A stretch of 44,105 bases of DNA from Candidatus Omnitrophota bacterium (GCA_015233375.1 JADFXW010000002.1:1-44105); one strand, 5' to 3'. Shown: positions 3,982-44,105, counted from the first letter of the stretch. Numbers and translations: made by a program. Notes: generated from the sequence alone by a model not told the origin.

Positions 3982-4009
3982 GATATTATTAAGTATACTA
4001 CTTTTTACT

Positions 4010-8821: not shown

Positions 8822-8827
8822 TATTTC

Positions 8828-8876
8828 GAACTCCCCCTTGCCCCCCTCTTTAATCGCTTCGCAAAGAGGGGGAACT
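8828..8876 (-). repeat. Hairpin plus G-rich (SD-like) unit, copy 1 of 2
   Basis: The minus strand reads TTCCCCCTCTTT-gcgaagcgatt-AAAGAGGGGG-gc-AAGGGGGAGTTC. The same architecture occurs at 37905..37944 on the plus strand. Both copies lie immediately 3' of a stop codon in the direction of transcription. Confidence 0.7.
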
Positions 8877-8877
8877 A

Positions 8878-16072: not shown

Positions 16073-16143
16073 TTAAACTCCATAATAGATACCCCGCCTT
16101 AACAAACATGGTTCTGATTATCTTTTAATTCACGCATGGCGTG

Positions 16144-16323
16144 TTTATAGACACATTGAAAGTTCTTTTAGAAACATTAAGGGATTTTTCGCCAAAAGTC
16201 GTCAAGGTTTTGCGCCCATTGTTTTCTAAAGCATCCTTAGTATATTTGGAAAACAATGGGCGCAAACCGTAGACGACGGCGAAAATATCCCGTTTCTAAA
16301 AGAACTTTCAATGTGTCTATAAA
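16144..16323. repeat. Long palindromic intergenic element E1 (subfamily I)
   Basis: TTTATAGACACATTGAAAGTTCTTTTAGAAAC...loop CTAAAGCATCCTTAGTATATTTGG...GTTTCTAAAAGAACTTTCAATGTGTCTATAAA. The outer and innermost stems are perfect; the mid-stem has conserved bulges. Homologous to E2 (33979..34160). Confidence 0.9.
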
Positions 16324-16331
16324 CCTCGCTC

Positions 16332-17255
16332 TCATCCACGCCTTGACAGACGTGGAATTCTCGCTTTGTTAAAACTACGTAAAACCATATCAAGCGCTGG
16401 TGTCTTTACGCCTATCTTGTGCGCTTCCTTCACTATAGCTTGTGTTATATAATCAATTTCTGTCGGACGACAGGCTTTTATATCTTGAAATAATGTCCCT
16501 CGATGAAGGATCCCTTTGAGATCCCCATGACGGACCCTCATTATCAGCTTCATAGGATCAAAACCAAGCTTTATCCCTAACGCTCTGGCTGTAGCCTTTC
16601 CTTCTTTGACGGCATCCTGGACTAATTTCCAAATATTCTTGTCCTTGGCTAAAATATCATATCCTTGATTCGTGATAACCGGCAAAGGGTTCATCACTGA
16701 GCTAAAAATAAGTTTTGCCCATACCACGCGGTCAGCCGCCCGGAAGACCTTACAGGGCATTTGGCATTGTTTAAAAATTCTTCCCACCATGGGGGCCCCA
16801 TCACCCCCAAGATACATCTGCCCTTGATAAAAAACATCCACTTCACCTGGGGCTTTTTCTTGGCACGCCATCGTGGTGGTGCCTCGGCAAATCAGCGCTT
16901 TTTTAAACAATTTTCCTGCCCAAGAGATATCAAACAAACCATTTTGAAGGAACAAAACACATCCAGGATTAAGAAATGCCACATCCTGAAGAGCTTTTCT
17001 AAAATCCATTATTTTGGTTGCTATAATCAGGACATCAACATCCAACCCTTGTAATTGGCTGATAGACTCAACAGAGTAGATTTGTGCCTTTCTTGACTGT
17101 CCCTTTTCTTTTAAAATGATCCTATTATTCTTAAGCGCTTTTCTTATAAAAAGGTTCTTGTCAAACACAGTCACATGCACCCTTCTAGACAAAAGAGCAG
17201 CCAAACTTTTTCCCAACGCCCCTTGACCAATCACAATAATCCTAAACATCCTCAT
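16332..17255 (-). CDS. 2-dehydropantoate 2-reductase (PanE/ApbA)-family NAD(P)-dependent oxidoreductase
   Basis: N-terminal Rossmann motif IIVIGQGALGKSLAALL. The C-terminal CRPTEIDYITQAIVKEAHKIGVKTP is typical of the ApbA C-domain. The last 13 codons lie inside repeat-module sequence. Confidence 0.75.
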   Translation of the reverse strand: MRMFRIIVIGQGALGKSLAALLSRRVHVTVFDKNLFIRKALKNNRIILKEKGQSRKAQIYSVESISQLQGLDVDVLIIATKIMDFRKALQDVAFLNPGCVLFLQNGLFDISWAGKLFKKALICRGTTTMACQEKAPGEVDVFYQGQMYLGGDGAPMVGRIFKQCQMPCKVFRAADRVVWAKLIFSSVMNPLPVITNQGYDILAKDKNIWKLVQDAVKEGKATARALGIKLGFDPMKLIMRVRHGDLKGILHRGTLFQDIKACRPTEIDYITQAIVKEAHKIGVKTPALDMVLRSFNKARIPRLSRRG

Positions 17256-18411
17256 AATAAATCAACCCCTCATCCTCAAAAAAACTTTTCTTGGTAAACC
17301 GCCCTTGCTTTAAGCCCTGTTGATAAAACGCCGTACCAGGCAATATCACAAGCTTATTGGTCCTCACCGTCACTCCAGACCCCATCTTTTGAAGGACTGA
17401 TAAGGTCTTATCCCTGTCCTTTTTTGTCTCCCCAGGATTTCCGTTTGTCATCATCACCTCAACATGAAGCCTTGCCTCTTTAGCCCAACGCACGGCATTT
17501 AATATTTCTTCAGACCCATATTTCTTTCCCAATTTCTTTAAAACACGCACTGAAGCAGATTCCACCCCAAAAGAAACAGCCCTGCAATGAGAATGGGCCA
17601 TCAATAAAAGCAGTTTTCTGCTGACCGAATCCACACACAACGAACATTCCCAAATAAAGCTCCCATTAATTTTCCGTAACCCTTCGCAAAGCTCAACTAA
17701 ACGCTTCTTGTCCCAGGCCAAATCTTCATCAAGAAACCTAACCCTTTGAGCATGATGGATTTCAACTAATTCCTTAATCTCATCTAATACATGAACAATA
17801 CTTCTGGCCCTTACCCCTTGCCCCCAAAGCACATGACGGTCACAAAAAACACAGTGATGCCTGCATCCTCTTGACGTCATGATAGAGACCGGACGATGCC
17901 CTTGTTTGTATAAGCAGGTCCCGATGGGTGGGATATCATCTAAATCCTTAAAAACACGCCTTGAGGTCTCGACCATTGTGTTTTCTTTTAAATAACATAT
18001 ATTCGGCACCTTGGGGCATACGCCTTTATGAAGCAGCATAGGCAGCACAAATTCAGGATCAGATAAAACAACAACATCTGCTAATTGACGCAACAAAATC
18101 TCCTCTTTAAACACAGAGGCAAACGGACCAAAAACAATGATACAAGACGGAGGATTCTTCCTCTGACGCATCTTGTGCATATGAGCAAAGACATTGGACT
18201 TGTTTCCAAAAAAGAGGGCATAACAACAAACATCCGTTTTCAACTTCTTGGCATGGACGCGAGGCATCTCTTTCCTCGGTAAAAAATCCACCATCCTTGC
18301 ATCAAATCCATTTTTAAGAAGTGATAGAAAAACACCTGCGGCACTGTAACGCATAAGCCCTGAGCCGCCGCATTCTGGACGAGTGTTATCTAAAAGAATG
18401 ACCTCAATCAA
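17242..18411 (-). CDS. B12-binding-domain (class B) radical SAM protein
   Basis: TSRGCRHHCVFCDRH carries CX3CX2C after an N-terminal flavodoxin-like region of about 170 aa (IIVFGPFAS..), as in cobalamin-dependent radical SAM enzymes. Confidence 0.8.
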   Translation of the reverse strand: MIEVILLDNTRPECGGSGLMRYSAAGVFLSLLKNGFDARMVDFLPRKEMPRVHAKKLKTDVCCYALFFGNKSNVFAHMHKMRQRKNPPSCIIVFGPFASVFKEEILLRQLADVVVLSDPEFVLPMLLHKGVCPKVPNICYLKENTMVETSRRVFKDLDDIPPIGTCLYKQGHRPVSIMTSRGCRHHCVFCDRHVLWGQGVRARSIVHVLDEIKELVEIHHAQRVRFLDEDLAWDKKRLVELCEGLRKINGSFIWECSLCVDSVSRKLLLLMAHSHCRAVSFGVESASVRVLKKLGKKYGSEEILNAVRWAKEARLHVEVMMTNGNPGETKKDRDKTLSVLQKMGSGVTVRTNKLVILPGTAFYQQGLKQGRFTKKSFFEDEGLIYYEDV

Positions 18412-18415
18412 TGTC

Positions 18416-19840
18416 TTATGCCCCTACTCTATAGTAAAGTGTTGTTAACCAATTATTGGCGTAGGCTTCAAGCCAAGATTGGCGTTTACTGTAATCACAC
18501 CGAGGGTCATATTGGCTAATAAAACGCTTCCGAAGCCGCCGTAAAAAATCCGGCTTAAACAAAACCCTTGAAAGAACAACATATTCACGGACGCGTTCAA
18601 ATTCCCATGGACCAGTAAATTTCCATACACTTTTTGAACAAGCAATCAGGCCTTGTTTCTTTAAATATTCCAAACCTTCCTGACAATGGTCAAGTACGCC
18701 CATGCCAAAACGTTTCAAGAAACCTTGAGATTTAAGCCCCTCGGTTATCATCGCCATGGCCGCGAAATGAGACATCACGTAAGTCTTATCTTCTGGACAG
18801 GCGTCAACGCCTGAGAAATCAGACATGGAGTCAAGGCCACGTGTCCGATAAAAAATGGATCCTGGAAACTGCCCCATAACCAAGGGGCCAAAACCAACCA
18901 CTGCTGCTTCCATACGCGTATACAATTCTTCCTGATATTCTTCTCCTTCACTATCAAGGGCATAGCTGCCAAGCCCTTTGCGTTTAAAACCAGCTTTCTG
19001 AAGAATAGCTATTGCTGTTTTTATAATAGCGTCCCGTCTCTTAATAAAATCCAAAACCTCTTCTGATGGAGCACATAATGCTTTAAGATTTTTTCCGCAA
19101 TAAGGATAAACATGGACGATATTAACTCCTTCATCAAGAAGCATTTTAAGGTCTTTCTTAATCCCTTGGACCGTCTGATACGGCAAGCCAGCGATAAGAT
19201 CTGCATTCACATGAGGCACCCCAGCCTTCAGGGCAGAACGCACACACCAAAGCACTTGTTTTTTAGTCTGAAAGCGTGCCACTTGTTTGATAATCTTTTC
19301 ATCAAGAGACTGAACCCCAATACTCAAACGAAATAATCCTCGCTTCACCAACACATCCAGTTTAGCTTGACTTAAAGAAGAAGGATTTGCTTCAAAAAGA
19401 ATTTTACGCTCCCTTACAGGAAAATTCTTATCCAACGCATCTAAAACAGTATCTAACTGGCTTTCATCAAGAATGGATGGCGTCCCCCCTCCAAAACAAA
19501 GGGTGGACGTATCCATGCCTTTTAAAACAGGAGAAAAGAATTTCATCTGATTCTTTAAGGAAGTGATATAGGCATCAATGTCCAAAGGCTGTTTCAATAC
19601 ACGCCTTGCACAATAACAAAACGCGCATGAGTTCTCACAAAACGGGACATGGACATACAAATGGGCCTTGGCAATAGATTGGACAAAAACATCATTTTCT
19701 CGTGAATTGTTAATAGATCGAGCGACATCCTCCCACTTCGAAGAAGTTGCCAATACCCCAATCAGAGAATCTTCGCTTGTCAAAGGCTTGATCTCGTTTA
19801 AAAAAAATAAAAAATTGCGCAAGTCTTTATCGTTAGACAT
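18416..19840 (-). CDS. HemN-like (class C) radical SAM protein
   Basis: HVPFCENSCAFCYC and CFGGGTPSIL. The ORF track extends to 19891. I prefer the ATG at 19840 (MSNDKDLRNFLFFLNEI), which aligns with the paralog start MNHNSSDSEKKNFLFFLNKV and removes the 37-nt overlap. Confidence 0.8.
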   Translation of the reverse strand: MSNDKDLRNFLFFLNEIKPLTSEDSLIGVLATSSKWEDVARSINNSRENDVFVQSIAKAHLYVHVPFCENSCAFCYCARRVLKQPLDIDAYITSLKNQMKFFSPVLKGMDTSTLCFGGGTPSILDESQLDTVLDALDKNFPVRERKILFEANPSSLSQAKLDVLVKRGLFRLSIGVQSLDEKIIKQVARFQTKKQVLWCVRSALKAGVPHVNADLIAGLPYQTVQGIKKDLKMLLDEGVNIVHVYPYCGKNLKALCAPSEEVLDFIKRRDAIIKTAIAILQKAGFKRKGLGSYALDSEGEEYQEELYTRMEAAVVGFGPLVMGQFPGSIFYRTRGLDSMSDFSGVDACPEDKTYVMSHFAAMAMITEGLKSQGFLKRFGMGVLDHCQEGLEYLKKQGLIACSKSVWKFTGPWEFERVREYVVLSRVLFKPDFLRRLRKRFISQYDPRCDYSKRQSWLEAYANNWLTTLYYRVGA

Positions 19841-19854
19841 CTTTCTTAGCCTCT

Positions 19855-21288
19855 TTACACCCCCATTTGATAATACAATGCCATCAGCCAATGATTCGAA
19901 AAAGAATGAAGCAGGGTCTTCCCTTTCCTGTAATCCGTCCCTGGATTATATTGCTTAGCATAACGCTTTTGAAGCTTTAATAAAAAATCTTCACCATATA
20001 AAACCCGAGAAAGAGCGATATACTCCCGAAGGTGTTCTATCTCCCAAGAGGCTGAAAACTTCCACACTCCTTTGAAAGAGCCCACTAAACCTAAAGATTT
20101 AAGATAATTTAAGCCCCCTTTGCATGCCTGTTTCAAAGAAACCCCAAATCTATTTAAAAAAACTTTTTCATCAAGACCGTCCGTAATGATTGCCATTATC
20201 GCATAACGAGCCATCACGAAACTTAAATCTTGTGGACAAGCCTCAAGGCTGTTAAAACCATTATCTTGACCTGAAGGCTTGGTCCTGTAAAAGAGGGCGC
20301 CAGGAAATTGGCCTATAGAATACGCCCCAAAACCAAGCACCGCTGATTCAAGACGTGTATACGCTTCTTCCTGATGATCTTCTCCGGCTTGATTCAGGGC
20401 ATAAGCACCTAGCCCTTTGCGTTTAAACCCGGAAGCTTTCAAAACCTTTGCGGCTTCATGCATCATGTCTGAACGTCTTTTAAAGAAATCAACAAACGTC
20501 TCTTGAGGACCACACAATTCATTGACAGGTAAACTGCTAAAGGGATGAACATGAACAATGTTAGCCCCTTCTTGAACAACTTTCTTAATATCCTCCAGAA
20601 GCCCTTGGATGCTCTGGCCTGGTAACCCGGACATCAAATCCACATTCACATAAGGAACGCCCGCAGCTCTGGCTACATATAAAGATGATAAAACTTTTTG
20701 CCTGGTCTGTGAACGAGCCACCTGTTTTAAGACGCAAGCCTCTAGCGACTCAACCCCCATACTCAAACGATAAAGTCCCCTATCCAATAAAAGGTCCAGT
20801 TTTGACCTTGTCCAAGAAGAAGGGTGTGTCTCAAAAAAGATTTTACGCCTCTGGACAGGATATGCGGCATCAGCCGCATCAAGAAGGAAGGTTATTTGTT
20901 TTTCATCCAAGAGAGACGGGGTCCCTCCACCAAAACAGATGTGAGATGCATCCATTCCCTCACAAGCCTTGGATTGACGTTCCATCTGGCGTGCAACGGC
21001 GTGAATATAAAGATCCAAATCCCTCTTGCTTTTAAGTAATCCTCGGGCACAATGGCAAAACTTACACAATCTCTCGCAAAAAGGCACGTGCACATATAAT
21101 TGCAGCTTCTTAATGGATGAAACAAAAGAAGAGGTTCGTCTTGCCTTTTGAAGCAGACCTGCCAGGCTACTCCATCTGGCAGGCCGCGTCAAAGCGCCAA
21201 TCACAGGGTCCTCAATGCTGGGCGGATGAACCTTATTAAGGAAAAATAAGAAGTTCTTTTTTTCTGAGTCTGATGAATTGTGATTCAT
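19855..21288 (-). CDS. HemN-like (class C) radical SAM protein, paralog of 18416..19840
   Basis: HVPFCERLCKFCHC and CFGGGTPSLL. Colinear similarity with the downstream paralog along the whole length. Confidence 0.8.
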   Translation of the reverse strand: MNHNSSDSEKKNFLFFLNKVHPPSIEDPVIGALTRPARWSSLAGLLQKARRTSSFVSSIKKLQLYVHVPFCERLCKFCHCARGLLKSKRDLDLYIHAVARQMERQSKACEGMDASHICFGGGTPSLLDEKQITFLLDAADAAYPVQRRKIFFETHPSSWTRSKLDLLLDRGLYRLSMGVESLEACVLKQVARSQTRQKVLSSLYVARAAGVPYVNVDLMSGLPGQSIQGLLEDIKKVVQEGANIVHVHPFSSLPVNELCGPQETFVDFFKRRSDMMHEAAKVLKASGFKRKGLGAYALNQAGEDHQEEAYTRLESAVLGFGAYSIGQFPGALFYRTKPSGQDNGFNSLEACPQDLSFVMARYAIMAIITDGLDEKVFLNRFGVSLKQACKGGLNYLKSLGLVGSFKGVWKFSASWEIEHLREYIALSRVLYGEDFLLKLQKRYAKQYNPGTDYRKGKTLLHSFSNHWLMALYYQMGV

Positions 21289-22436
21289 TTTTGCCTTGAA
21301 AAACTCAAATAAAATTTCCCTTTAAGCAGTCCTTTCTTTTGATAAAGCATAAACAAATCTTTTTTCAGCAACGCCTGGTTACCCGGACACTTAGGGAATA
21401 TTTGCGAGGCTTCTGTTAATCGATTATCCTGATACTCGACGAAATCAACATTATCAAAAAACCTCGCTAAATGAAGACACTTCTTAAAATCTTCCATCGT
21501 TTCTGTCGGGAAATTAATAATAAAGTGAGACTCCAGGCGGATCTTGGAATTATAAGCTTTAATCTCTTTGATGGTCTTCATCATCAATGAAAGAGAATAG
21601 GAACGTTTCATCAGTTTCAGGATTCGACTCGATCCACTTTGCAATGGAGTCAATAAATACGTGATTCTTTTATCCAAAATATGTTTCTTTAAAAAAGGAT
21701 AATATTTTAAGAATAAAGACGGATAAAAATTAAATAACCCTATCTTAATCCTTTTATCAATCCTCAAGATTTCATCCACCAACTCCACAATATTGGCGCC
21801 ACTATCATGCCCCCAACAACCGCAATCATCCGCAATCAACATCACCTCAAAACTTTTTTCTTTAATAAATCTCTTAATATCTTCAAGGATGTCCTTTTGA
21901 CAGCGGCTTTGAAGGGCTCCTTTCGCAATTTTAATATTACAATACGAACATTTATTCAAACAACCTTGCGCTATCAACAAAGGCCTTAAAGCCTTTTTCC
22001 CTACATAAGAAACAGTACACATTGAAGCTGAAACATCCTCTATCCTGACCCTATAATCAAAATAATCCGAAAATTGATGAATAGACCCAGGAGGGATTAA
22101 AATATGCCCGCTTTTTCTGATATCTTCAGACACCTTGCATAAACACCCAAACACAATCACCTTCTTTGGAGCTTTTACGAATTGATTAATATAGTTGTTA
22201 TTGATTTTGGCAAAGGCATCCGTAATGCCACAGGTATTAAAAATAAGGATATCTGCATGACTCGGACGTTTTACAACCGTATAATCATTCAATTTCAAAA
22301 ACAATGCGATTTTCTGAAAAAGCAGTGAACTCGACGCACACGACATCAGTCCACTGGCAGATACAGCATCCAATAAACAGACCCTCTGTGAGGCATCAAA
22401 TTTTCTCACGGATACCACCTTTAAGCGATGAGTCAT
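21285..22436 (-). CDS. MiaB/RimO-like methylthiotransferase-family radical SAM protein (no evident TRAM domain)
   Basis: N-terminal UPF0004-like Cys positions (RVCLLD, FNTCGITD, FGCLCK). Radical SAM motif AQGCLNKCSYCNIK. Paralog of the C-terminal half of 22396..24897. Confidence 0.7.
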   Translation of the reverse strand: MTHRLKVVSVRKFDASQRVCLLDAVSASGLMSCASSSLLFQKIALFLKLNDYTVVKRPSHADILIFNTCGITDAFAKINNNYINQFVKAPKKVIVFGCLCKVSEDIRKSGHILIPPGSIHQFSDYFDYRVRIEDVSASMCTVSYVGKKALRPLLIAQGCLNKCSYCNIKIAKGALQSRCQKDILEDIKRFIKEKSFEVMLIADDCGCWGHDSGANIVELVDEILRIDKRIKIGLFNFYPSLFLKYYPFLKKHILDKRITYLLTPLQSGSSRILKLMKRSYSLSLMMKTIKEIKAYNSKIRLESHFIINFPTETMEDFKKCLHLARFFDNVDFVEYQDNRLTEASQIFPKCPGNQALLKKDLFMLYQKKGLLKGKFYLSFSRQK

Positions 22437-24897
22437 TCAATACAAATTCTCCCTTAACCAGCCCCTTTTTCTTTGCAAATTCAAATATCCTTTTTTTTGC
22501 CTCCAGCTCCTCCAAAGAACACTTGGGTCGTATGCGACACGCTGGTGTTTGGGCATTTTCTCCGTACTCAATAAAGTTAGCATAATCAAAATACTTTGCT
22601 AAACCCAAGCTCTTTTTAAAGTCACTAGCTGTTTCTGTTGGGAAGTTGACCATAAAATGCGTGTATAACTGAATACCTGGATTGAGGCGTTTTATTTCTT
22701 GGACCTTGTCCATCATGGACGAAAGATTATAGGCTCGATTCATCAGTTTAAGTATCCTGAAAGAGGCGCTTTGTAAAGGAAGCAGCAAATACGTAATCCT
22801 TTTTTTCGCAATATGCTTTTTGAGACTTGAGTAATATTTTAAAAACAGGCTTGGATACATATTATAAATTTTTATCGTAATCTTTTCATGAGCTTTGAGA
22901 ATATTATCAATCAGATCAACAATATTCAAACCATTCTCATGCCCCCAACTTCCGCAATCCTCGGCAATCAGAAATATCTCATAACTTTTATCCTTAATAA
23001 ACAACTTGACCTCATGAAGAATCTCTTCAAGAGCCCGGCTTTTGACATCCCCTTTGGCGATCTTAATATTGCAATATGAGCATTTGTTGACGCAACCTTG
23101 GGCAATGACCAGGGGTCTGGCAGAAGCAAACGCCTGCGACGAAGGTATTTCTTTAATGCTTATCGTGTTTTCAAAATAATCAGAAAACTTATCAATTTCT
23201 GTTGAACCAATTAATAAGCACCCGCTCTTTTGGACCTCTGGTGATATCTTGCCCAAACAACCAAAAATAATCATCGTCTTTTGGGCTTTGGCGTATCTTT
23301 TGATAAAATCAAGATTGGTTTGGGCCCAGGCATCTGTCAAGCCGCAGGTATTAAAAAGAACAATATCCGCCTCCGGTACAGATTCCACCAGTCTATAACC
23401 ATTTAGCTTAAAAAATAATTTAATCCGTTCAAAAAATACAGAGCTTGAAAAACAATACCTCTTGTCATTAGCATATAATATGTCTAATAAACAAATTTTC
23501 TGCTGACGGTTAAACTGGCCCTGAATCTTTTTGGGAGTCATCCGTAATGCGTGTGTTTTGTTTGTTTTATAATAGTCTGGATCTTTAATGATACGACAGT
23601 ATCCCTGGATACGTTTGGCAGGCATCGACTGAGTATAAATAGGAAAATCGGGGCCGTTGTCTTTAAGCCAATAAGCCTCATCAAACCCCTCTTTAATCGC
23701 TTGATAATAAAGCTTGCCGCCTGGCATGATTTGCAAAGGCCTGACATGAAGTTTTATTTCCGGACGTAATTGCTTACGGAAAGAATACGTTTGGGCGACT
23801 GTTGAAGCGTCTTCACCAGGGAATCCAATTATCAAATTAGCATCAGCCTCAATAGCACTTTCGATGGTCAAATTAAGGTTTTTAACAGCAATCTCTGGTG
23901 AAAAATTCCGGCCTATGGCAGGCAATAGATGGCGGCAAAAGGAATCGACCCCATAATAAATCCTGCGGCAGCCCGCAGCCCTCATCGCTTGAAGCACTTC
24001 TTTGTCCACCAGATCAACCCTTGTCGATGTGGTCCACTCCAAAAAAGGAGATTCTTTCCTTAAAATATCACAAAATTCAAAGACCCGCTTTTTGTTAATA
24101 GTAAAATTGGTATCACAAAAAAAGACCTGCCTTGGACCAAAGAATCTATAAAGTTTGTGAACATACTCCAAGGCCTGTTTCGGACTTCTTTGAATGACTC
24201 GGCGTTCATCCTGGGCCATGCGGCTACAAAATAGACATCTATAAACGCAACCCCTGGCTGTTTCAACAGGAAGAGCGGAGATCATCGTATCCTTTGATTT
24301 CCAGGCTGGCAGGCCATCAATAAAAAAATCCTTAAAATCAAAAACCAAATCCCTATTCAGATCATCCTCAAGCAGACGCTGTGGGTTTTGATAAATGCGG
24401 TTTTTCTTATCCCGCCAGGTCAAACCACGAACAGAACTCATGGGGCTTTGATGAATGATGTTATTGATAACTTCTAAAAATGCACCCTCTGCGTACCCTC
24501 TCATGATCATGTCCACATCAGGATAATGCTTCATGATCTGAGTATCAAGAAAGGTGGCATGAGGCCCACCTAACACAACCTTGATTCCTGGGCTAACCTT
24601 CTTAACAATTTGAGCCAGCTCAAAACAGGCAAACCGGCTTTGAGTAAAACAGGTGATCCCAACAATATCCGGAACATAGGTACGGATAATTTCTTCAATT
24701 TTCTCAAGGGTATGATCTGGTTGATAATAAATATGGACAGGGCTCTGATACTCTAACCGAATCGCATTAGCTAAGGCAAAAACACCCAGAGGAAACCACT
24801 CCTCACGGCCAGATGTGCCAAACAAATCCTCGCCACCCAAATGCGGGTAAGGAGGAGAAAAAAATAAAACACGTAAACCCTTGTTAGCCTTTGACAC
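22396..24897 (-). CDS. Fusion protein: B12-binding radical SAM domain (N) plus MiaB-like radical SAM domain (C)
   Basis: 833 aa. The N-terminal half has VVLGGPHATF and ETARGCVYRCLFCSRM. The C-terminal half has FNTCGLTDAW, FGCLGK and AQGCVNKCSYCNIK. GTG start at 24895-24897, preceded by TAAGGAG. Confidence 0.8.
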   Translation of the reverse strand: MSKANKGLRVLFFSPPYPHLGGEDLFGTSGREEWFPLGVFALANAIRLEYQSPVHIYYQPDHTLEKIEEIIRTYVPDIVGITCFTQSRFACFELAQIVKKVSPGIKVVLGGPHATFLDTQIMKHYPDVDMIMRGYAEGAFLEVINNIIHQSPMSSVRGLTWRDKKNRIYQNPQRLLEDDLNRDLVFDFKDFFIDGLPAWKSKDTMISALPVETARGCVYRCLFCSRMAQDERRVIQRSPKQALEYVHKLYRFFGPRQVFFCDTNFTINKKRVFEFCDILRKESPFLEWTTSTRVDLVDKEVLQAMRAAGCRRIYYGVDSFCRHLLPAIGRNFSPEIAVKNLNLTIESAIEADANLIIGFPGEDASTVAQTYSFRKQLRPEIKLHVRPLQIMPGGKLYYQAIKEGFDEAYWLKDNGPDFPIYTQSMPAKRIQGYCRIIKDPDYYKTNKTHALRMTPKKIQGQFNRQQKICLLDILYANDKRYCFSSSVFFERIKLFFKLNGYRLVESVPEADIVLFNTCGLTDAWAQTNLDFIKRYAKAQKTMIIFGCLGKISPEVQKSGCLLIGSTEIDKFSDYFENTISIKEIPSSQAFASARPLVIAQGCVNKCSYCNIKIAKGDVKSRALEEILHEVKLFIKDKSYEIFLIAEDCGSWGHENGLNIVDLIDNILKAHEKITIKIYNMYPSLFLKYYSSLKKHIAKKRITYLLLPLQSASFRILKLMNRAYNLSSMMDKVQEIKRLNPGIQLYTHFMVNFPTETASDFKKSLGLAKYFDYANFIEYGENAQTPACRIRPKCSLEELEAKKRIFEFAKKKGLVKGEFVLNDSSLKGGIREKI

Positions 24898-24920
24898 TTA
24901 TTGCTCCTTAACACGCGTTT

Positions 24921-24949
24921 GATATAAGGCTTGGAAATTTTTTTATCAA
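24921..24949 (-). promoter_or_regulatory. Candidate sigma70-type promoter for the radical-SAM operon
   Basis: The minus strand reads TTGATA, 17 nt, TATATC, about 25 nt upstream of the SD and GTG start. The -35 overlaps the foot of the 24947..25057 palindrome. Confidence 0.4.
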
Positions 24950-25057
24950 CTACTGTTGCCCCGCCAATCTTCGTCACCGATTCTGAAAGACAGCCCGAAG
25001 GGCGTTGTCTTTCTGAAAAATTAGAAAAGATTGGCGGAAAAAGGCAACCCGTAGTTG
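24947..25057. repeat. 111-nt imperfect palindrome in the divergent control region
   Basis: Paired segments are CAACTAC/GTAGTTG, GTTGCC/GGCAAC, CCGCCAATCTT/AAGATTGGCGG and GAAAGACA..GCCC-gaa-GGGC..TGTCTTTC. Not obviously related to E1-E4. Confidence 0.75.
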
Positions 25058-25083
25058 AAAAAACAACTTCTAACCCTTATAGC
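25055..25083 (+). promoter_or_regulatory. Candidate sigma70-type promoter for the asnB-like/GT operon
   Basis: TTGAAA, 17 nt, TATAGC, ending about 14 nt before the ATG at 25098 (a very short leader with no SD). The -35 overlaps the other foot of the palindrome. Confidence 0.35.
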
Positions 25084-25097
25084 GAACACACTAGCTT

Positions 25098-31108: not shown

Positions 31109-31109
31109 A

Positions 31110-32123
31110 ATGAAAATATTATTAGTCGGATACCACAATCCTCATTTTACCAACACCATGGTCTGGCGTGAAAAGGCCGTTGAATATTTAGGCCATGAGC
31201 TGTTAACCTTTGATGACAGGAGTTTTTTGTTCCCAGGCCGTCTGAGGGATAAAAGCCCGTTTTTACATCAATGGGATTTGGAGCGACTCAATAAGTCTCT
31301 GGTCCAATTTGTTGATAAACATTCACCTGATATTTGCTTAATAGTTGGGGGACAGAGAATTTTATCTTCTTCGGTTATTGAAATCAAGAAAAGAGGGATA
31401 TGGACAGCGTTATGGACATCAGATGTCCCTATCGATTTCAAGAATATTTTACAGGCAGCCCCTTTTTATGATCATTTATTTTGCGCGGGGAGTGAGGCTG
31501 TTGATATTTTTCATAAGGAAGGATATCGTCAAGTGACCTGGTTGCCGTTTGCATGCGATCAGAATTTTCATAAGCCTTTTTCTTTAACAGGTAAAGAAGC
31601 CAAGGCCTATGGAAGGGACCTTGTGTTTGTAGGGTCCTATTATCCTAACCGCGCCAAGACCCTGGAGTCGCTAGCGGCTTTTGATATAGGTGTTTGGGGG
31701 CCGTATTGGTCAAAATTATCATTTGATTCTAAACTGAAATTAAAAGCAGTAGACGTTAAAATGAATTTTGACCAATGGGTCAAGATTTATAGCGCCTCCA
31801 AGATTTGTGTGGTCATTCATTATCAAGACGAAAATTGCCTCTGCCATCAGATAAGTCCGAAGGTCTTTGAAGCCATGGCTTGTGGATGTTTTGTCTTAAC
31901 AGACAGGCAAAAGGATGCCTCGAAGGTGTTTCAAGATAAAGAACATCTTGTGTTTTTTGATAACGAGTCTGATCTCTGCCAAAAAGCCCAGTATTATTTA
32001 GATAACGATGAGAAGCGAAGGCAAATAGCGCGGGATGCACAAGCTTTTGTGTTGGCCTCTCACCGATATCAGGATAGGATTAAAAAAATTTTAGACACTT
32101 TTCAAGGGAAGGTGGGGTTATGA
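31110..32123 (+). CDS. CgeB-family glycosyltransferase (Glyco_trans_1_2-like C-domain)
   Basis: ISPKVFEAMACGCFVLTD and KEHLVFFDNESDL..YYL.NDEKRRQIA are typical of the CgeB/DUF3880 family. Confidence 0.65.
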   Translation: MKILLVGYHNPHFTNTMVWREKAVEYLGHELLTFDDRSFLFPGRLRDKSPFLHQWDLERLNKSLVQFVDKHSPDICLIVGGQRILSSSVIEIKKRGIWTALWTSDVPIDFKNILQAAPFYDHLFCAGSEAVDIFHKEGYRQVTWLPFACDQNFHKPFSLTGKEAKAYGRDLVFVGSYYPNRAKTLESLAAFDIGVWGPYWSKLSFDSKLKLKAVDVKMNFDQWVKIYSASKICVVIHYQDENCLCHQISPKVFEAMACGCFVLTDRQKDASKVFQDKEHLVFFDNESDLCQKAQYYLDNDEKRRQIARDAQAFVLASHRYQDRIKKILDTFQGKVGL

Positions 32124-32848
32124 GCGACTGTCGAAAAAAGCTGTTTGACGCGTATCATGAGGCTGTTTATAAACAAAGTAATTCCTTAACCCAAGAACAG
32201 TTTGAATGGGCTTGTGGGACATTTGAACATGAGTGGGGAGGCTTTATCCCAGAGACTAAAGATGCGGTTATCCTTGATTTTGGTTGTGGGGTCGGGGATT
32301 TCTTATATTATTTGAAGAAAAACGGATACACCAACTTTTATGGTATTGATACTTCTGCTGGGCAGATTGAGTATTGCAGGCTTAAGGTCAGTGATAAGGC
32401 CCAAGTTATTGACGGAAGAGAGTTTCTTAAAGACAAGGCAGGCATTTATGATTTTATCATGGTTAAGGATGTCTTGGAGCATATACCTAAGAATGAGGTT
32501 ATTGAACTTCTTGGGTTGCTGCATCAAGCCCTTAAAGCTCACGGTAAACTTGTAATCCGTGTGCCGAATATGAGTAATCCTTTTGGATTAGACGCTCGTT
32601 TCAATGATTTTACCCATGAAACAGGTTTTACCTCAAAGAGCCTTAATCAGGTGTTGATTACCGCTGGATTTACTGATGTGCAGATCCTGCCAGACCAAAA
32701 AATGGTTATCCGTTCTTTTAAAAATTGGATACGGAGCATCTTGGTCTGGAAGTTACGTCATTTGATCCGTTTTTGTTATTACATCCAAGATTACACCGTA
32801 CCCAATAATTTGGATAAAAACATTGTTGCTGTGAGTATCAAATCATGA
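32120..32848 (+). CDS. Class I SAM-dependent methyltransferase
   Basis: ILDFGCGVGDF is motif I. VKDVLEHI is the post-motif II/III region. Confidence 0.85.
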   Translation: MSDCRKKLFDAYHEAVYKQSNSLTQEQFEWACGTFEHEWGGFIPETKDAVILDFGCGVGDFLYYLKKNGYTNFYGIDTSAGQIEYCRLKVSDKAQVIDGREFLKDKAGIYDFIMVKDVLEHIPKNEVIELLGLLHQALKAHGKLVIRVPNMSNPFGLDARFNDFTHETGFTSKSLNQVLITAGFTDVQILPDQKMVIRSFKNWIRSILVWKLRHLIRFCYYIQDYTVPNNLDKNIVAVSIKS

Positions 32849-33933: not shown

Positions 33934-33978
33934 CTTACGCGAGAACTTCATGTTTGTTACGGCGTGGATTATAGTGAG

Positions 33979-34160
33979 GTTTATGGACGCTGTAAAAGTT
34001 TTTTCCGAAACGGGATATTTTCGCCGTCATCTACGGTTTGCAACAATTGTTTTCTAAAGTATGCTTAGTATATTTGGAAAACAATTGTTGCAAAACCTTG
34101 ACGACTTTTGGCGAAAAATCCCTTAATGTTTCGGAAAAAACTTTTACAGCGTCCATAAAC
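33979..34160. repeat. Long palindromic intergenic element E2 (subfamily I)
   Basis: GTTTATGGACGCTGTAAAAGTTTTTTCCGAAAC...loop CTAAAGTATGCTTAGTATATTTGG...GTTTCGGAAAAAACTTTTACAGCGTCCATAAAC. Its core is homologous to the reverse complement of E1. Confidence 0.9.
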
Positions 34161-34182
34161 CTGCATCACGTGGATGGAAAGA

Positions 34183-34290
34183 AAATTGGCTCTTTGAAAT
34201 TTTGAATGGGTAGCAAAGCTTAATCTTACGCGAGGCCAAGCCACCCGCTAATCTATACCATTCCTACCCATTCAAAATTCAAAAGAATCA
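34183..34290 (+). repeat. Mosaic repeat unit: T-motif hairpin enclosing junction motifs ('empty' copy)
   Basis: CTTTGAAATTTTGAATGGGTAG ... CTACCCATTCAAAATTCAAAAG form a 22-nt stem. Positions 34183-34260 are near-identical to 43907-44105, except that the latter carries an extra GC-rich hairpin. Confidence 0.85.
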
Positions 34291-34317
34291 GAAAATTAGA
34301 TAAGGACGAAGAATTTT

Positions 34318-35043
34318 ATGAGATATGGAATTATTTCAGATATTCACTCCAACCTGGAAGCTTTTGAGGCAGTGATGACTGAATGTCGTCAGTTAAAAAT
34401 AGAGACCTTGTTATGTTGCGGGGATATTGTGGGCTATGGAGCTGATCCCAAAGCTTGTATTCATTTGGTCAAAAAAGGGAACATAGTTTCTGTTGCTGGT
34501 AACCATGATTGGGCGGTGTCAGGACGGCTTGACTTTTCTTATTTTACTCCCAATGGCCAGGCTGCGGTCTTATGGACCAGATCGCAACTGGGTATGGAAG
34601 ATATGATTTATTTAAACAATCTGCCTTCATGGCTGAAGAACAAAGACTGTACCCTTGTCCATGGGACCTTGCAATCACCGGGCCAGTTTACTTATTTGAC
34701 CAACATTGAGAAAGCCTCCCAAACCTTTGCCCTTATGGAAAACAAGGTGTGTTTTGTAGGGCATACCCATGTGCCTCAAGTGTATATCGAGCGTGAGGGG
34801 AGGATTTATTCGAGTGATATTTTAGATATTGATATTCAACCTGATTGCAGATATATCATTAATGTGGGAAGTGTCGGACAGCCGAGGGACAGGAATCCTT
34901 TGGCCAGTTTTTGTGTTTATGATACCCAATTAGAGATGATTGAAAATCACAGGGTCCCTTATGATATTGAAAGGGCCCAACAGAAAATATTAGAGGCAGG
35001 TTTGCCTCAAGCCTTGGGCCTGCGTTTAAGAGAGGGACGATAA
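34318..35043 (+). CDS. Metallophosphoesterase (YfcE/MJ0936-like)
   Basis: ISDIHSN, CCGDIVGYG, GNHD and GHTH. Confidence 0.85.
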   Translation: MRYGIISDIHSNLEAFEAVMTECRQLKIETLLCCGDIVGYGADPKACIHLVKKGNIVSVAGNHDWAVSGRLDFSYFTPNGQAAVLWTRSQLGMEDMIYLNNLPSWLKNKDCTLVHGTLQSPGQFTYLTNIEKASQTFALMENKVCFVGHTHVPQVYIEREGRIYSSDILDIDIQPDCRYIINVGSVGQPRDRNPLASFCVYDTQLEMIENHRVPYDIERAQQKILEAGLPQALGLRLREGR

Positions 35044-36128
35044 TGCGCGTAGGGATTGATGCTCGTGAAATCCAAAATGGCGTTTATACAGGGATAGGCC
35101 GGCCATTGGCTAATTTTCTTCATTATTTTGCTTCACTCGATAATGAGGATACCTGTGTCCTGTTTTCTGCTCAAGAAATCCCCATTGATTTTGGCCCTAA
35201 GGTCAAGAAGGTGGTTATCCCTGAAAAATTGACTTTTTATTGGGACCAGTGGCAATTACCAGAGCAGTTAAAGAAAGAGGGGGTTGAGATTTTTTATTCC
35301 CCTTATTATAAAATTCCTTTTTTAAAGCCTTGTCGTTGTGTCAGCTCCATCTTGGATTTGATGTATTTAACGTTTGGGCCTTACTACAAGCGTATGCCCT
35401 GGTGGTCTAAATTATATTACGCTACTTTTGGGAGGGCTTTTGCACATCGATCAGATAGGGTGTTGACATGCTCAGAATATTCTCAGAGAGATATCCAGCG
35501 TATTTATGGAGTGAAGCCTGAGAAAATCAAGTTAATTCCTTTAAGTTTGGGTGATATTTACCGACCAGAATCGGGCGCTTCACCAGTGAAGGGGCGATAT
35601 CTTTTGTATGTGGGTAATTTTAAGATACATAAGAATGTGATAAATATTATTAAGGCTTTTGCGTTATTAGAAAACGAGTTTCCTGATTTGAAATTGGTAT
35701 TAGCTGGCCCTCGGGAATACGAGTATAACGCCTTAGTGGCAAAGGTCCATGATTGTCATCTGGACCAGAAGGTCATTTTTTTAGGGAAGATTACCCAGGA
35801 AGATAAGCCTCATCTTTTATATAGCGGGGCAGAGGTGTTTGTGATGCCTTCTTTGTATGAGGGTTTTGGCCTGCCGCCTTTAGAAGCCATGGCTTGTGGG
35901 GTGCCGGTCGTTGCCTCGAATACAACATCGATTCCTGAGGTGGTTAAAGACGCGGGATTGCGGGTTGACCCTATGGATGTAAAAGCTATTGCTGAGGCCA
36001 TCAAGAGGATTTTGAAGGACCATGTTTTAAAGCAGGAGCTGATTGCCCGTGGTTTGCGTTATGCCAAGGAATACGAGGCCACAAAGGTGTCTCGAATGCT
36101 TTATGATTTTTTGAAAGGCTTAAGTTAA
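35043..36128 (+). CDS. GT4 glycosyltransferase
   Basis: YEGFGLPPLEAMACGVPVVASNTTSIPEVV. The TAA stop (36126-36128) begins junction motif TAATCTATACGCGCGG. Confidence 0.85.
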   Translation: MRVGIDAREIQNGVYTGIGRPLANFLHYFASLDNEDTCVLFSAQEIPIDFGPKVKKVVIPEKLTFYWDQWQLPEQLKKEGVEIFYSPYYKIPFLKPCRCVSSILDLMYLTFGPYYKRMPWWSKLYYATFGRAFAHRSDRVLTCSEYSQRDIQRIYGVKPEKIKLIPLSLGDIYRPESGASPVKGRYLLYVGNFKIHKNVINIIKAFALLENEFPDLKLVLAGPREYEYNALVAKVHDCHLDQKVIFLGKITQEDKPHLLYSGAEVFVMPSLYEGFGLPPLEAMACGVPVVASNTTSIPEVVKDAGLRVDPMDVKAIAEAIKRILKDHVLKQELIARGLRYAKEYEATKVSRMLYDFLKGLS

Positions 36129-36141
36129 TCTATACGCGCGG

Positions 36142-36321
36142 GGCTTGAGGGAGGGCTATTATGTTTTCAGAACAATAAGGGATTTTTGGCCAAATGTTTG
36201 CGAGGGCTTACAATAAATTTTTTCTAAATATACTAAGGATGCTTTAGAAGAAATTTATTGTAAACCGAAGCAAACGGCCAAAATATCCCGTTCAGAAAAC
36301 ATAATAGCCCTCCCTCAAGCC
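36142..36321. repeat. Long palindromic intergenic element E3 (subfamily II, inner segment inverted relative to E4)
   Basis: GGCTTGAGGGAGGGCTATTATGTTTTC...loop CTAAATATACTAAGGATGCTTTAG...GAAAACATAATAGCCCTCCCTCAAGCC. Confidence 0.9.
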
Positions 36322-36365
36322 TTGCGTGATTTACCCAATCAAAATTTTCAACAGAATTCATATAT

Positions 36366-37895
36366 ATGGTTTACTTTTCAAAAATATTATTGATGGTCTG
36401 GGGCATGAGATTATTGTTCGTGCTGATAGCAGCCGCCTCAAAATTAAATCAGTTCTTCCTTTTATCATCTTTTCTTTTTGTCCTCATGGTCTTTCATGCC
36501 TGTAATGGAGTCTGGTGTGGTGATTTTTGGATACATGCTGTGGTGGTGCGTGAGTTGGCCACACATCCGTTTGCCCCTCAACATCCTCAAATGTTAATGA
36601 ATGCGGCGCACGCCTTTTATTCACCTTATACGTTAGGTGTTGCCTGGCTTGTCAGGATATTCTCTTTAAGCCCCATCCAAGCCCTTTCTATGGCAGGGCT
36701 TTTTAATTTTCTTCTTTTTATGAGTGGTTTAAAAATATTTGTAACGCTTTTACTGGGGCCAGGCCGGCGGGCTTTTTATACGCTTTTATTGACCCTTTTT
36801 TTATGGGGGCAGACACCGTGGTTTTTTAGCGGTTTTTTTCATTTTAAGGTTTTAGGATATGTGTTGCCCTATCCATCAACCTTTGCCATGGCCCTTGTTT
36901 TTTATGGGTTATCAATGGTGATTTTATTTTTGCGCCAAAGAAGTTGGTGGATGCTTTTCGCCCTGTATTTGTTAAGTACCGTTGTTCTTTTGACGCACAC
37001 ATTAAGCGCTGTTGTTTTATATGTAGGGTTTTTGGCTCTTGCGGTTGGATGTTCACAAGAAAAAGTGATGGACGGTGTTTTAGTTCTTTTGCTTGTTCCA
37101 TTGTCTCTTTTCCTGGCAATGGCCTGGCCTTATTATTCCATATCACAACTTTTTATGACAAAAGGGGCCTTTATAGATGCTGAAAATATATGTATGTATC
37201 AAGGGGTGTGGGGGAGTATCGGACCTTCTTTTATCGGTTTCTGGCCTCTTTTTTTAAGGATAAAATCTAATAAAAGAGATCCATTAGTTTTAATGTTTAT
37301 AGCGTTAGCGTTTATTTATGTTTATGGGGGCATCACGGGTCATTATTCTTGTGGCCGGGTGATCTCCTTCTTGGTTTTTGTTTTGCATCTGGCTATTGCG
37401 GATTGGATTTCAAATCATGAAAGATTCTTTGAACAGAAGTTTATAGAAAAAAGTCTTTTTCTTTTGATTACGGGTTTCTTCATATTGGGGTTGTTTTATA
37501 ACTGTGCCCCCCAGGCAAGGGTGTATTGGCCTGGGATCAAGAATAGTTATAACCAGTATTTGTTCTTAGGAAAATATACCAAGCAATACGATGTCATTCT
37601 TGCTGACTTAGAAACCAGTGATTATGTGCCTGTGTTTGGAGGCAAGGTGGTGGCGTATAAGCATTCGAGACCTTTTGTGAAGGACAGTCAAGAACGAATC
37701 AATGATGTGAATGCCTTTTTTGACAAACAAGCATCTCTAAAAGAGCGTCAAGCAATCATCAATAAGTATCATGTTCATTTTATATTGATAAGTAAAGAAA
37801 AACAAAGTCAGGGGCCCTCAGTGAAGGATTTTGCTTCTTTGGGGCAGGCAGTATATGTTGATCAGAAGTTCGCGTTGATTAAATTTACACCGTAG
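36366..37895 (+). CDS. Polytopic membrane protein, GT-C-like architecture
   Basis: 509 aa with many TM segments and a soluble C-terminal domain of about 110 aa. Post-TM acidic/aromatic motif GDFWIHAVVVREL. The function is inferred only from architecture. Confidence 0.5.
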   Translation: MVYFSKILLMVWGMRLLFVLIAAASKLNQFFLLSSFLFVLMVFHACNGVWCGDFWIHAVVVRELATHPFAPQHPQMLMNAAHAFYSPYTLGVAWLVRIFSLSPIQALSMAGLFNFLLFMSGLKIFVTLLLGPGRRAFYTLLLTLFLWGQTPWFFSGFFHFKVLGYVLPYPSTFAMALVFYGLSMVILFLRQRSWWMLFALYLLSTVVLLTHTLSAVVLYVGFLALAVGCSQEKVMDGVLVLLLVPLSLFLAMAWPYYSISQLFMTKGAFIDAENICMYQGVWGSIGPSFIGFWPLFLRIKSNKRDPLVLMFIALAFIYVYGGITGHYSCGRVISFLVFVLHLAIADWISNHERFFEQKFIEKSLFLLITGFFILGLFYNCAPQARVYWPGIKNSYNQYLFLGKYTKQYDVILADLETSDYVPVFGGKVVAYKHSRPFVKDSQERINDVNAFFDKQASLKERQAIINKYHVHFILISKEKQSQGPSVKDFASLGQAVYVDQKFALIKFTP

Positions 37896-37904
37896 GAAAT
37901 TCCT

Positions 37905-37944
37905 TTTCCCCCTCTTTTTTTAAAGAGGGGGAAAGGGGGAGTTC
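37905..37944 (+). repeat. Hairpin plus G-rich (SD-like) unit, copy 2 of 2
   Basis: CCCCCTCTTT-tttt-AAAGAGGGGG then AAAGGGGGAGTTC. Same architecture as the minus-strand copy at 8828..8876. Confidence 0.7.
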
Positions 37945-38018
37945 TCGTTGAAGTTTGTCGTAAGCGCTAAGTTTAGTTTCTTGTATTTTCTTTGGTGGAC
38001 AAGCACTCTATGTGCGTA

Positions 38019-38197
38019 GGCTGGCGGGAGGGCTATTATGTTTTCGGAATGGGATATTTTGGCCGTTTGCGTCTGTTACAATAAATTTTTTCTAAAGCAT
38101 CCTTAGTATATTTGGAAAAAATTTATTGTAAATCCTCGCAAACATTTGGCCAAAAATCCCTTATTGTTCCGAAAACATAATAGCCCTCCCGCCAGCC
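38019..38197. repeat. Long palindromic intergenic element E4 (subfamily II)
   Basis: GGCTGGCGGGAGGGCTATTATGTTTTC...loop CTAAAGCATCCTTAGTATATTTGG...GAAAACATAATAGCCCTCCCGCCAGCC. Confidence 0.9.
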
Positions 38198-38244
38198 CTG
38201 CATGATTTACCCATTCAAAATTTTAAAGAGCCTTTAATTTTTAT

Positions 38245-43906: not shown

Positions 43907-44105
43907 AAATTGTGGCTCTTTGAAATTTTGAATGGGTAGCAAAGCTTAATCTTACGCGGGGCCTGTCTTGGCCGGCGTGTTAACGTGCTCCTCTTGGCGA
44001 ATGGCAACCCTATCAGCGGCCAGAAAGGGGGTTTCCCTTTACCGCTGACTTGGGCACTGGTCGTGCGCTCGTTAACACGCCGGCCAAGACACCCGCTAAT
44101 CTATA
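43907..44105 (+). repeat. Mosaic repeat unit ('filled' copy), truncated by the window end
   Basis: AAATTGTGGCTCTTTGAAATTTTGAATGGGTAGCAAAGCTTAATCTTACGCGGGG ... CACCCGCTAATCTATA matches 34183-34260 on both sides of an inserted hairpin. Confidence 0.85.
43965..44090. repeat. GC-rich 126-nt hairpin nested in the repeat unit
   Basis: A perfect 21-bp outer stem GTCTTGGCCGGCGTGTTAACG / CGTTAACACGCCGGCCAAGAC. An inner hairpin TCAGCGG..AAAGGG-ggttt-CCCTTT..CCGCTGA. Markedly more GC-rich than its surroundings. Confidence 0.8.

Follow-up and report, generated by a model that had tools for sequence, protein, structure and literature searches.

Long, oriented hairpin repeats at gene junctions of Candidatus Omnitrophota

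Long imperfect intergenic palindromes that lie inside transcription units in either orientation are represented by the ERIC (IRU, ~127 bp) and YPAL (RU-2, 168 bp) repeats. Both are lineage-wide families that include longer as well as shorter derivatives, lack a linked transposase and spread in a manner that is unsettled, and Hulton et al. in 1991 reportedly found the centre of ERIC to be its best-conserved part. ERIC-type copies have terminal inverted repeats (TIRs), target duplications and TA at both ends, and an ERIC hairpin within an mRNA reportedly changes its RNase E-dependent stability (PMC3184786). In this study we analyze a family of palindromes, called here the E family, that shares with ERIC and YPAL the placement, the lineage-wide occurrence, the length derivatives and the lack of a linked transposase. 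Four copies, E1 to E4, occur in a 44,105-nucleotide stretch of DNA from a Candidatus Omnitrophota bacterium (GCA_015233375.1 JADFXW010000002.1:1-44105), and this whole stretch is referred to below as the window.

Other described systems also resemble the E family. REPINs are non-autonomous intergenic hairpins that form subfamilies within a genome and in which the whole hairpin is the unit of selection; a single-strand, structure-recognising mechanism has been proposed for them (PMC3116915). Bacterial miniature inverted-repeat transposable elements (MITEs), such as Correia, RUP, Nezha and Chunjie, insert between genes and exhibit filled and empty orthologous sites (PMC3184786), and like the E family they are non-coding, 100-400 bp in length and form long stem-loops. 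BIMEs are intergenic mosaics in which palindromic units, the REPs of 35-40 bp, often alternate. Finally, in attC sites, which are 57-141 nt in size, structure prevails over sequence, extrahelical bases give strand identity and the sites lie between gene 'cassettes'.

We find that the E family is non-coding, oriented, structure-constrained and confined to Omnitrophota, and that it has multiplied within genomes and has been gained, lost or replaced at gene junctions. No published description of these palindromes was found in literature searches, and the family is apparently undescribed. In kind it appears most like ERIC/YPAL, REPINs, MITEs and BIMEs, although features that define classical MITEs, REPINs and attC sites are lacking. 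The reading that we favor, with slightly better than even confidence, is that E1-E4 are phylum-restricted, non-autonomous, non-coding dispersed repeats that act as one long hairpin. Omnitrophota are uncultured and have very small cells and tightly packed genomes, in which repeats of 180-240 bp between operon genes are a conspicuous investment.

Structure, orientation and distribution of the palindromes

The window is a glycan biosynthesis and modification locus that encodes GT4 and GT2 glycosyltransferases, MBOAT and acyltransferase_3 proteins, a deacetylase, a methyltransferase, an aminotransferase and many radical-SAM enzymes. The four palindromes are real: an inverted-repeat scan of the window returned exactly four large, near-perfect palindromes, each of ~180 bp, at positions within 1-5 nt of those given in the original prediction (Table 1), and a profile search of the window detected no fifth copy. 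Their outer arms span 31-37 nt and their inner arms are 85-88% complementary. E1 folds into a single hairpin of ~80 bp, which is the stem length that had been proposed, with an energy of -110.2 kcal/mol versus -34.6 +/- 4.0 kcal/mol in dinucleotide shuffles (z = -19). The loop sequence and the common box GGGAT(A)TTTTSGCC were likewise as first described, and so was the division of the outer arms into type I (E1 and E2) and type II (E3 and E4). When placed in a common orientation E3 and E4 are 91% identical and E1 and E2 are 81% identical, with identities of 60-72% between type I and type II.

These are not simple palindromes: comparison of E1-E4 with their own reverse complements gives identities of only 79-82%. 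The family profile scores the window copies at ~111-135 bits on one strand versus ~40-45 bits on the other, and genome-derived copies at ~160 versus ~50 bits. Alignment of E1-E4, and then of 47 copies, revealed that the asymmetry of the arms is fixed across copies. One arm reads GAAAC-AWTMA-GGGATTTTTSGCC-AAAW-GTCNNC-RA-GG-N-TTTAC and the partner arm reads GTAAA-CC-GNN-GNNGAC-GGCSAAAATATCCC-GTTTC. Bulges of 5, 4 and 1 nt, a bulged A and a 2x3 internal loop each keep to a fixed side. A central module of ~110 nt comprises the 5-nt bulge, a 13-bp GGGATTTTTSGCC helix with the bulged A, the 4-nt bulge, a 6-bp helix, the 2x3 internal loop and an apical domain. Every element is oriented by this fixed placement of the bulges, and the strands of E1-E4 in Table 1 are assigned from this arm asymmetry. 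Among 117 unique copies, the orientation of the apical loop, which reads CCAAAT...CTTTAG on the oriented 'A' strand, follows the arm asymmetry in 116, the exception being E1 in which a loop of ~24 nt is flipped. The arm asymmetry, its coupling to the loop and the reach of the repeat units 20-45 nt past the palindrome had been overlooked in the original prediction.

The two strands also differ in their predicted folding. G-U cells outnumber A-C cells on the A strand by 152 to 53, and the numbers become 52 and 27 if every combination of column and type is entered a single time. The more stable predicted hairpin is that of the A strand in 81 versus 34 copies with RNA parameters and in 88 versus 25 copies with DNA parameters, with an average difference of only 3 kcal/mol out of ~89. 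All of these counts are drawn from related copies and do not represent independent trials. The strand difference constitutes moderate evidence that one strand is the folding strand, or the strand that is more often single-stranded.

The distribution of the family was analyzed with an exact pattern of two invariant boxes 70-100 nt apart, followed by an nhmmer profile. Ascertainment by the exact two-box pattern means that the counts do not establish the breadth of the family or the invariance of the boxes. The pattern matched 44 stretches from 14 assemblies in a collection of species-representative genomes, with 14 of these stretches supplied by a single metagenome-assembled genome (MAG), JADFXH, as well as 86 metagenome stretches. 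All 14 assemblies are labelled Candidatus Omnitrophota, some of them labelled 'Planctomycetales' MAGs. The profile recovered 141 copies (117 unique) from Omnitrophota genomes and metagenomes, which bears out the view that E1-E4 belong to a true repeat family. The exact pattern was unmatched in viral contigs and E3 had no BLAST match in phage and plasmid collections, and given the absence of matches in these collections a phage, plasmid or virus origin was rejected.

Copies are of nearly constant length (165-186 nt). Their central ~110 nt are conserved throughout the phylum, while the outer ~33 nt on each side are unrelated between subfamilies and yet remain paired, pairing being all that is required of them. 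Alignment columns 46-58 and 138-153 are invariant, the ends are variable and the apical domains fall into about five types. Conservation of the box helix results partly from ascertainment; the neighbouring helices and bulges, which lie outside the search pattern, are likewise conserved. RNAalifold yielded 66 consensus pairs, of which 45 have changed on both sides, and 95.4% of cells are paired, compared with 74.8% after column shuffling. For covariation the alignment scores 0.526, which none of 500 shuffles attained (0.143), and the score falls to ~0.09 when the partners are slid by 1-3 columns. At the one unconstrained position of the search pattern, too, covariation is perfect (CG 18, GC 16, UA 9). 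The variable arms are common within subfamilies and across genomes rather than unique, which speaks against a spacer-like role for them.

No reading frame is conserved within the palindromes. An ATG-initiated open reading frame (ORF) is kept in 17, 20 and 18 of 52 copies for the three frames. A hidden small ORF (~38 aa in some copies) was accordingly rejected, in agreement with the earlier statement that the elements have no coding capacity. That statement had also named no RNA family for them, and Rfam does not contain one either, as E1-E4 have no match at the gathering threshold, where the sole match in the window is a cobalamin riboswitch elsewhere. A permissive Rfam search returned only generic hairpin (miRNA-precursor) models at 28-48 bits versus thresholds of 67-195, and a known RNA family was accordingly rejected.

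Gene junctions, turnover and gene content

The surroundings were covered for 8-15 kb around each copy with ORFs defined as simple longest-ORF calls. Genes were called on both sides of 92 copies, of which 84 are at co-directional, 5 at convergent and 3 at divergent junctions, and the co-directional copies comprise 34 that are sense and 50 that are antisense to transcription. The median placement is 33 nt past the upstream stop and 54 nt ahead of the downstream start. Element-free junctions in the same loci are 89% co-directional with a median gap of 4 nt, and an enrichment of elements at co-directional junctions (91% versus the 89% background, p = 0.62) was withdrawn. The elements thus occupy ordinary operon junctions of very compact genomes.

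The original prediction placed the elements at borders of operons or gene blocks. They do lie between genes, but neither a T-tract terminator nor a convincing promoter marks such a border. A terminator scan found no T-tract terminator at the element ends, the flanks are without T-runs, and an intrinsic terminator, which would be a G+C-rich hairpin with a T-run directly behind it, was rejected. A separate G+C-rich hairpin of 18 bp at 37900-37939, located after the gene at 36366-37895 and before E4, is the best terminator-like site of the region, with a weak T-run. A sigma-70-like TTTACA-16-TATACT occurs inside E2-E4 on the oriented strand. It is bound to the loop variant of these three copies, and promoter-like sites in the region number 12 versus 10.4 in shuffles, so an internal sigma-70 promoter was also rejected.

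The earlier statement that the window is without a transposase or integrase is consistent with Pfam, which recognises none among the window ORFs, several of which have no Pfam match at all. All-against-all clustering of 390 neighbouring ORFs grouped only glycosyltransferases of syntenic loci, and a linked gene was therefore discarded. An autonomous parent was discarded as well, since no half-element pair encloses a gene and the solo halves are deletion products.

Multiplication of the family is evident from nine JADFXH copies that are nearly identical over ~240 nt and have unrelated flanks. In this genome the repeat unit continues past the palindrome, by ~35 nt on the left side and by 22 nt on the right. 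Additionally, a relative of E2 with 95% identity is present in different flanks in L088, a contig from a peat metagenome. The original prediction had proposed a comparison of orthologous sites, and at three such sites an element is present in one species and missing from another (L118 versus L043, L069 versus L007 and L031 versus L019). For example, the empty site of the L118/L043 comparison is a tight TAA-T-ATG gene junction. At other orthologous junctions the subfamily or the apical domain differs by species, as occurs in L076/L074, L018/L123/L005, L020/L084 and E2 versus the L026 element at 1989-2137. Decay products include L032 2229-2318, in which the apical 80 nt are deleted, and L018 4474-4536, in which one half is deleted; in L037 5615-5810 the apical domain is replaced. 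The palindrome may also be inverted between the same flanking sequences. Thus, E3 and E4 are inverted relative to the same plus-strand flank modules, and the palindrome in L017 and L019 is opposite to that in L026 between the same flank modules.

Two of these comparisons display features of translation initiation beside the hairpin. In L069 8930-9140, versus L007 3906-3935, a Shine-Dalgarno-like GGAG immediately precedes the hairpin base and the start codon immediately follows it, and in L118 2390-2600, versus L043 7803-7820, a new AAAGGAA is present in the flank. This suggests that at tight stop-ATG junctions folding of the hairpin may hold a ribosome-binding site near the start codon.

Two related loci permit gene content to be compared around the elements. 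L026 (JADFXH010000008) is collinear with 27.0-36.1 kb of the window, with gene products that are 43-71% identical. Its element at 1989-2137 has the same orientation as E2, lies at the orthologous junction and has outer arms that are unrelated to those of E2; an additional GT2 gene follows immediately. A second L026 element is exactly at the position of the methyltransferase gene at 32120-32848 of the window. L033 shares with the window the GT4 gene at 35043-36128 and the acyltransferase gene at 38245-39255, between which L033 has two other genes and one element while the window has E3, a gene for a 509-aa product and E4. Every gene-content difference in the two comparisons therefore adjoins an element, and this fits long repeats acting as breakpoints. 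As to the 'cassette-like blocks' of the original prediction, the gene-content differences adjoining elements speak for the term, but operon-boundary marks and integron-style arrays in one orientation are absent.

Elements that lie less than 1.3 kb apart strongly favor one inverted arrangement, forming eight (-,+) pairs and four same-orientation pairs, with no (+,-) pair, and in several loci a single gene has an element on either side. The bracketed genes are hisB, a PAPS-reductase-like gene, a DUF58 gene, a methyltransferase gene and genes for unknowns, with no transposase or integrase among them. Pairs are located in L040 (976-1369), L079 (229-598), L080 (1040-1559), L089 (5039-6105), L097 (4-1041), L117, L128 and L037 (5071-5809), and at E2-E3 of the window. 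The 5' ends of the oriented strands face each other in (-,+) pairs, which recalls alternating BIME units or the ends of composite transposons.

The palindromes are bordered by short flank modules. On the right side of E3 and E4 the consensus is YTGCRTGATT-TACCCAWTCAAAATT, which lies 20-23 nt ahead of the next ATG, and on the left side it is CTATRYGCG. The orientation of the right-flank module of E3 follows the downstream gene and not the palindrome. The analogous module in JADFXH, ATATCAGTATCAGCCTG / CAAGAATTTTGACAGAAC, is also found as an uninterrupted sequence that lacks the palindrome, ~35 nt ahead of start codons. To judge from these sequences, the palindromes may either target the flank modules or spread together with them by recombination. 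Inverted copies of the E3/E4 flank module also border a different conserved structured element, 'F'. The spacer after E2 (34186-34286) repeats the flanks of element F (GGCTCTTTGAAATTTTGAATGGGTAGCAAAGCTTAATCTTACGCG ... CCCGCTAATCTATA) with the F core of ~130 nt gone, and looks like a deleted F copy with a deletion scar between two GGCC repeats.

Element F itself is a conserved non-coding sequence of ~150 nt that occurs in the window at 43917-44105, where the end of the window truncates it. Homologues are present in L031 (1285-1455), L019 (3444-3594), L023 (4819-4968), L046, L075, L087, L091, L098 and L103. The window copy is 82% identical to that of L031 and has inverted TACCCATTCAAAATT modules on its flanks. 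F forms a long hairpin with bulges (-68 kcal/mol, z = -4.2), is located just upstream of a ribosome-binding site and ATG in several loci, and at a cutoff as loose as E <= 5 still has no match in Rfam. It may represent an unclassified leader or riboswitch, or a 6S-like RNA. Additionally, short-repeat hairpins CATCACAACCYCCGGRGGTTGTGATGG and the hairpin motif TGGATTCCCGCTTTCGCGG(GAATG) adjoin palindromes in several loci, for example in L008 at ~6680-6760 and L034 at ~4790-4860, and they occur in the right flanks in L040 (976), L046, L052, L059, L066, L104, L105, L107, L112 and L125. With several short repeat families beside the palindromes, these intergenic regions are mosaics of repeat types.

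Dispersed hairpin repeats as the probable explanation, and alternatives

Comparison with the described systems reveals a likeness of kind. Relative to ERIC, the E family shows no target duplication and no conserved termini, its outer 33 bp are unrelated between subfamilies and fully compensated, and it belongs to a different phylum. We know of no sequence resemblance between the E family and the 127-bp ERIC consensus. The ends (REPs) of REPINs are conserved and the centre is variable, whereas the reverse is true of the E family. REPINs also cluster beside a RAYT gene, and no such gene is among the examined neighbours of the E family (390 ORFs in the window and the first 44 loci). Short REP-like CACGC...GCGTG hairpins do adjoin several E-family copies. 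The filled and empty orthologous sites are those expected of MITEs, but there are no MITE-like TIRs, as the outermost ~15-30 bp are unrelated between subfamilies and the centre is conserved. Target-site duplications are likewise lacking, no insertion sequence with E-family ends is present in 131 sequences, and unlike in MITEs the whole element is one palindrome. BIME-like features are the head-to-head doublets and the neighbouring unrelated repeats; the unit, however, is a 180-bp structured hairpin instead of a REP.

If E1-E4 are dispersed repeats that act as one long hairpin, then a trans-encoded protein would recognise the folded core on one strand and only copies with an intact hairpin would propagate. 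This would explain how the arms have drifted between subfamilies and nonetheless stayed complementary. Because the copies are without T-tracts and lie inside operons, they are expected to be transcribed through, giving RNA hairpins of ~80 bp that could be RNase III substrates or could change mRNA stability. Long near-identical repeats would additionally be hot spots of deletion, inversion and exchange for neighbouring genes, which would give the glycan locus its 'cassette-like' look.

Several observations weigh against this explanation. The termini, which are the part that a transposase usually binds, are the least conserved region. In 56 unique copies whose borders are clean, no fixed target-site duplication is present. 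Within the 14-nt flanks, the longest direct repeat averages 3.86 nt versus 3.50 +/- 0.12 nt in permuted controls, and this small excess arises because the RYGCRY motif and short REP-like CACGC...GCGTG hairpins are present on both sides. An apparent TGCRT target duplication was dismissed as this same quasi-palindromic RYGCRY / REP-like flank motif, and possible 5-nt duplications (ATGAA and GTATG) in two inter-species comparisons are not firm, given a flank identity of ~75%. No transposase, integrase or recurrent neighbouring gene is present among ~390 ORFs from the window and the first 44 loci, and no gene lies between the arms of a copy in 131 sequences. The family may also have spread through recombination between common flank modules. 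The G-U bias is modest and the copies are phylogenetically non-independent. Finally, the core is kept across species in which the flanking genes are ~70% identical in DNA, and the arms of the orthologous copies in L076/L074 are compensated, both of which could equally mean a host-level function.

Such a function is the main rival, and we regard it as unlikely. It would make the elements host cis-elements, that is a structured intercistronic RNA or a DNA cruciform that insulates, processes (through RNase III) or stabilises operon segments and that has spread by recombination or gene conversion. Retention of the core in 14 species genomes, the presence of an element at the E2-orthologous junction despite ~70% DNA identity, and compensatory changes between orthologous copies all argue for selection by the host. 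So do the intergenic location of nearly all copies with called neighbours, the flank modules that are oriented with the downstream gene 20-40 nt ahead of its start, and the absence of both a transposase and a target duplication in the examined loci. On the other hand, a cis-element would not be expected to occur in both orientations to transcription despite its clear asymmetry, nor beside functionally unrelated genes. Many orthologous junctions are empty, degenerate or truncated copies are common, and there are bursts of near-identical copies inside one genome.

We assign a low probability to an unknown structure-specific enzyme that acts on the folded single strand, either a hairpin-guided single-stranded DNA transposase or recombinase or an RNA processor. 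Such an enzyme would read the shape and a few core bases, and pairs of elements would mobilise or invert the genes they enclose. If this is true, Omnitrophota would own a dispersed, integron-like reshuffling of surface-glycan genes.

Quite improbable are attC-like structure-specific recombination sites, at which a recombinase would act on a bulged single-strand hairpin and move or invert gene blocks. A conserved structure with free outer-stem sequence, and extrahelical bases that define the strand, would suit such sites, as would the gene-content differences that adjoin elements, the bracketed single genes, the bias among close pairs and the core that is inverted against identical flanks in E3/E4 and in L017/L019 versus L026. 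However, the R''/R' consensus RYYYAAC / GTTRRRY is absent from the stem base, which reads CGAAAC/GTTTCG, CGGAAC/GTTCCG and the like, with only the GTTGAGC subfamily fitting R' by chance. At 180 nt the element is about twice the usual attC length, and it is dispersed over the genome between housekeeping genes, with most copies being solitary. Orientations are mixed in place of an array (+, -, +, - in the window), the bracketed genes include the housekeeping gene hisB and a cysD-like gene, and no integrase is present among the window ORFs by Pfam or in the examined neighbouring genes.

More doubtful still are independent small-RNA genes with their own promoter and an oriented strand, which would produce a long hairpin RNA such as a small-RNA precursor or a protein sponge. 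The strand bias in G-U over A-C pairs and in folding energy, an orientation that is independent of the host operon and the TTTACA-16-TATACT within E2-E4 on the oriented strand are consistent with such genes. However, the promoter-like match is missing from the commonest loop, CCAAATGAAGAGAATCTTTAG, its -35-like hexamer lies in the paired stem, the 3' arm is followed by no terminator and the number of promoter-like sites is close to that in shuffles. An assembly artefact from fold-back chimeric reads, to which the palindromic shape alone would point, is refuted by the recurrence of the family across different projects, in 14 genomes that were assembled independently and in 86 metagenome stretches, by copies within unique flanks and at orthologous positions, and by conserved asymmetric bulges that fold-back cannot create.

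With its conserved asymmetric core and its free but compensated stems (45 covarying pairs), the family constitutes a natural experiment in hairpin-dependent selection. It can be used as a marker to type strains and to locate hot spots of rearrangement in surface-polysaccharide loci, and as bait for the recognising protein. If this protein turns out to be a recombinase or nuclease that reads structure, it would be interesting mechanistically and possibly technologically. Otherwise this would be another ERIC-like family that is chiefly of use in annotation, where masking the copies as repeats is advisable and they are not to be annotated as genes or small RNAs.

Coordinates and other features of the window

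Table 1. Positions of the E-family palindromes and their flanking sequences in the window
Feature	Position	Strand	Description
E1	16143-16324	+	type I outer arms; outer stem 16143-16175 / 16292-16324, complementarity 100%
E1, 5-nt bulge	16176-16180		ATTAA
E1, box	16181-16193		GGGATTTTTCGCC; partner strand GGCGAAAATATCCC at 16278-16291
E1, apical loop	~16226-16249		inverted relative to the arms; sole such copy in 117
E2	33977-34162	-	type I outer arms 33977-34011 / 34128-34162, complementarity 100%
Spacer after E2	34186-34286		inverted TACCCATTCAAAATT modules at 34198-34212 (minus) and 34265-34279 (plus)
Left-flank module of E3	36126-36140	+	TAATCTATACGCGCG; overlaps stop codon of gene 35043-36128
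E3	36141-36322	+	type II outer arms, GGCTTGAGGGAGGGCTATTATG...
E3, weaker palindromic extension	36137-36326		arms 36137-36173 / 36290-36326 are 92% complementary; 36141-36322 perfect
Right-flank module of E3	36323-36346	+	TTGCGTGATT TACCCAATCAAAATT; 20 nt before ATG at 36366
Left flank of E4	38004-38018		related to left-flank module of E3
E4	38019-38197	-	type II outer arms 38019-38049 / 38167-38197, complementarity 100%
Right-flank module of E4	38198-38222	+	CTGCATGATT TACCCATTCAAAATT; 23 nt before ATG at 38245

The window contains further features apart from the palindromes. The locus is rich in B12-binding and radical-SAM enzymes, with an unusually dense set of at least 10 radical-SAM genes at 2139-10915 and 17242-24897, two of which have B12-binding or UPF0004 domains. 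The cobalamin riboswitch (Rfam RF00174) is located on the minus strand at 1505-1637 with 32.3 bits, barely over the gathering score. A 115-nt stretch at 24945-25066, in the divergent intergenic region between a B12-binding radical-SAM gene and an asparagine synthase gene, matches no Rfam family; it shares 87% identity with L038 3781-3895, and its fold consists of nested helices (-55 kcal/mol, z = -9.5).

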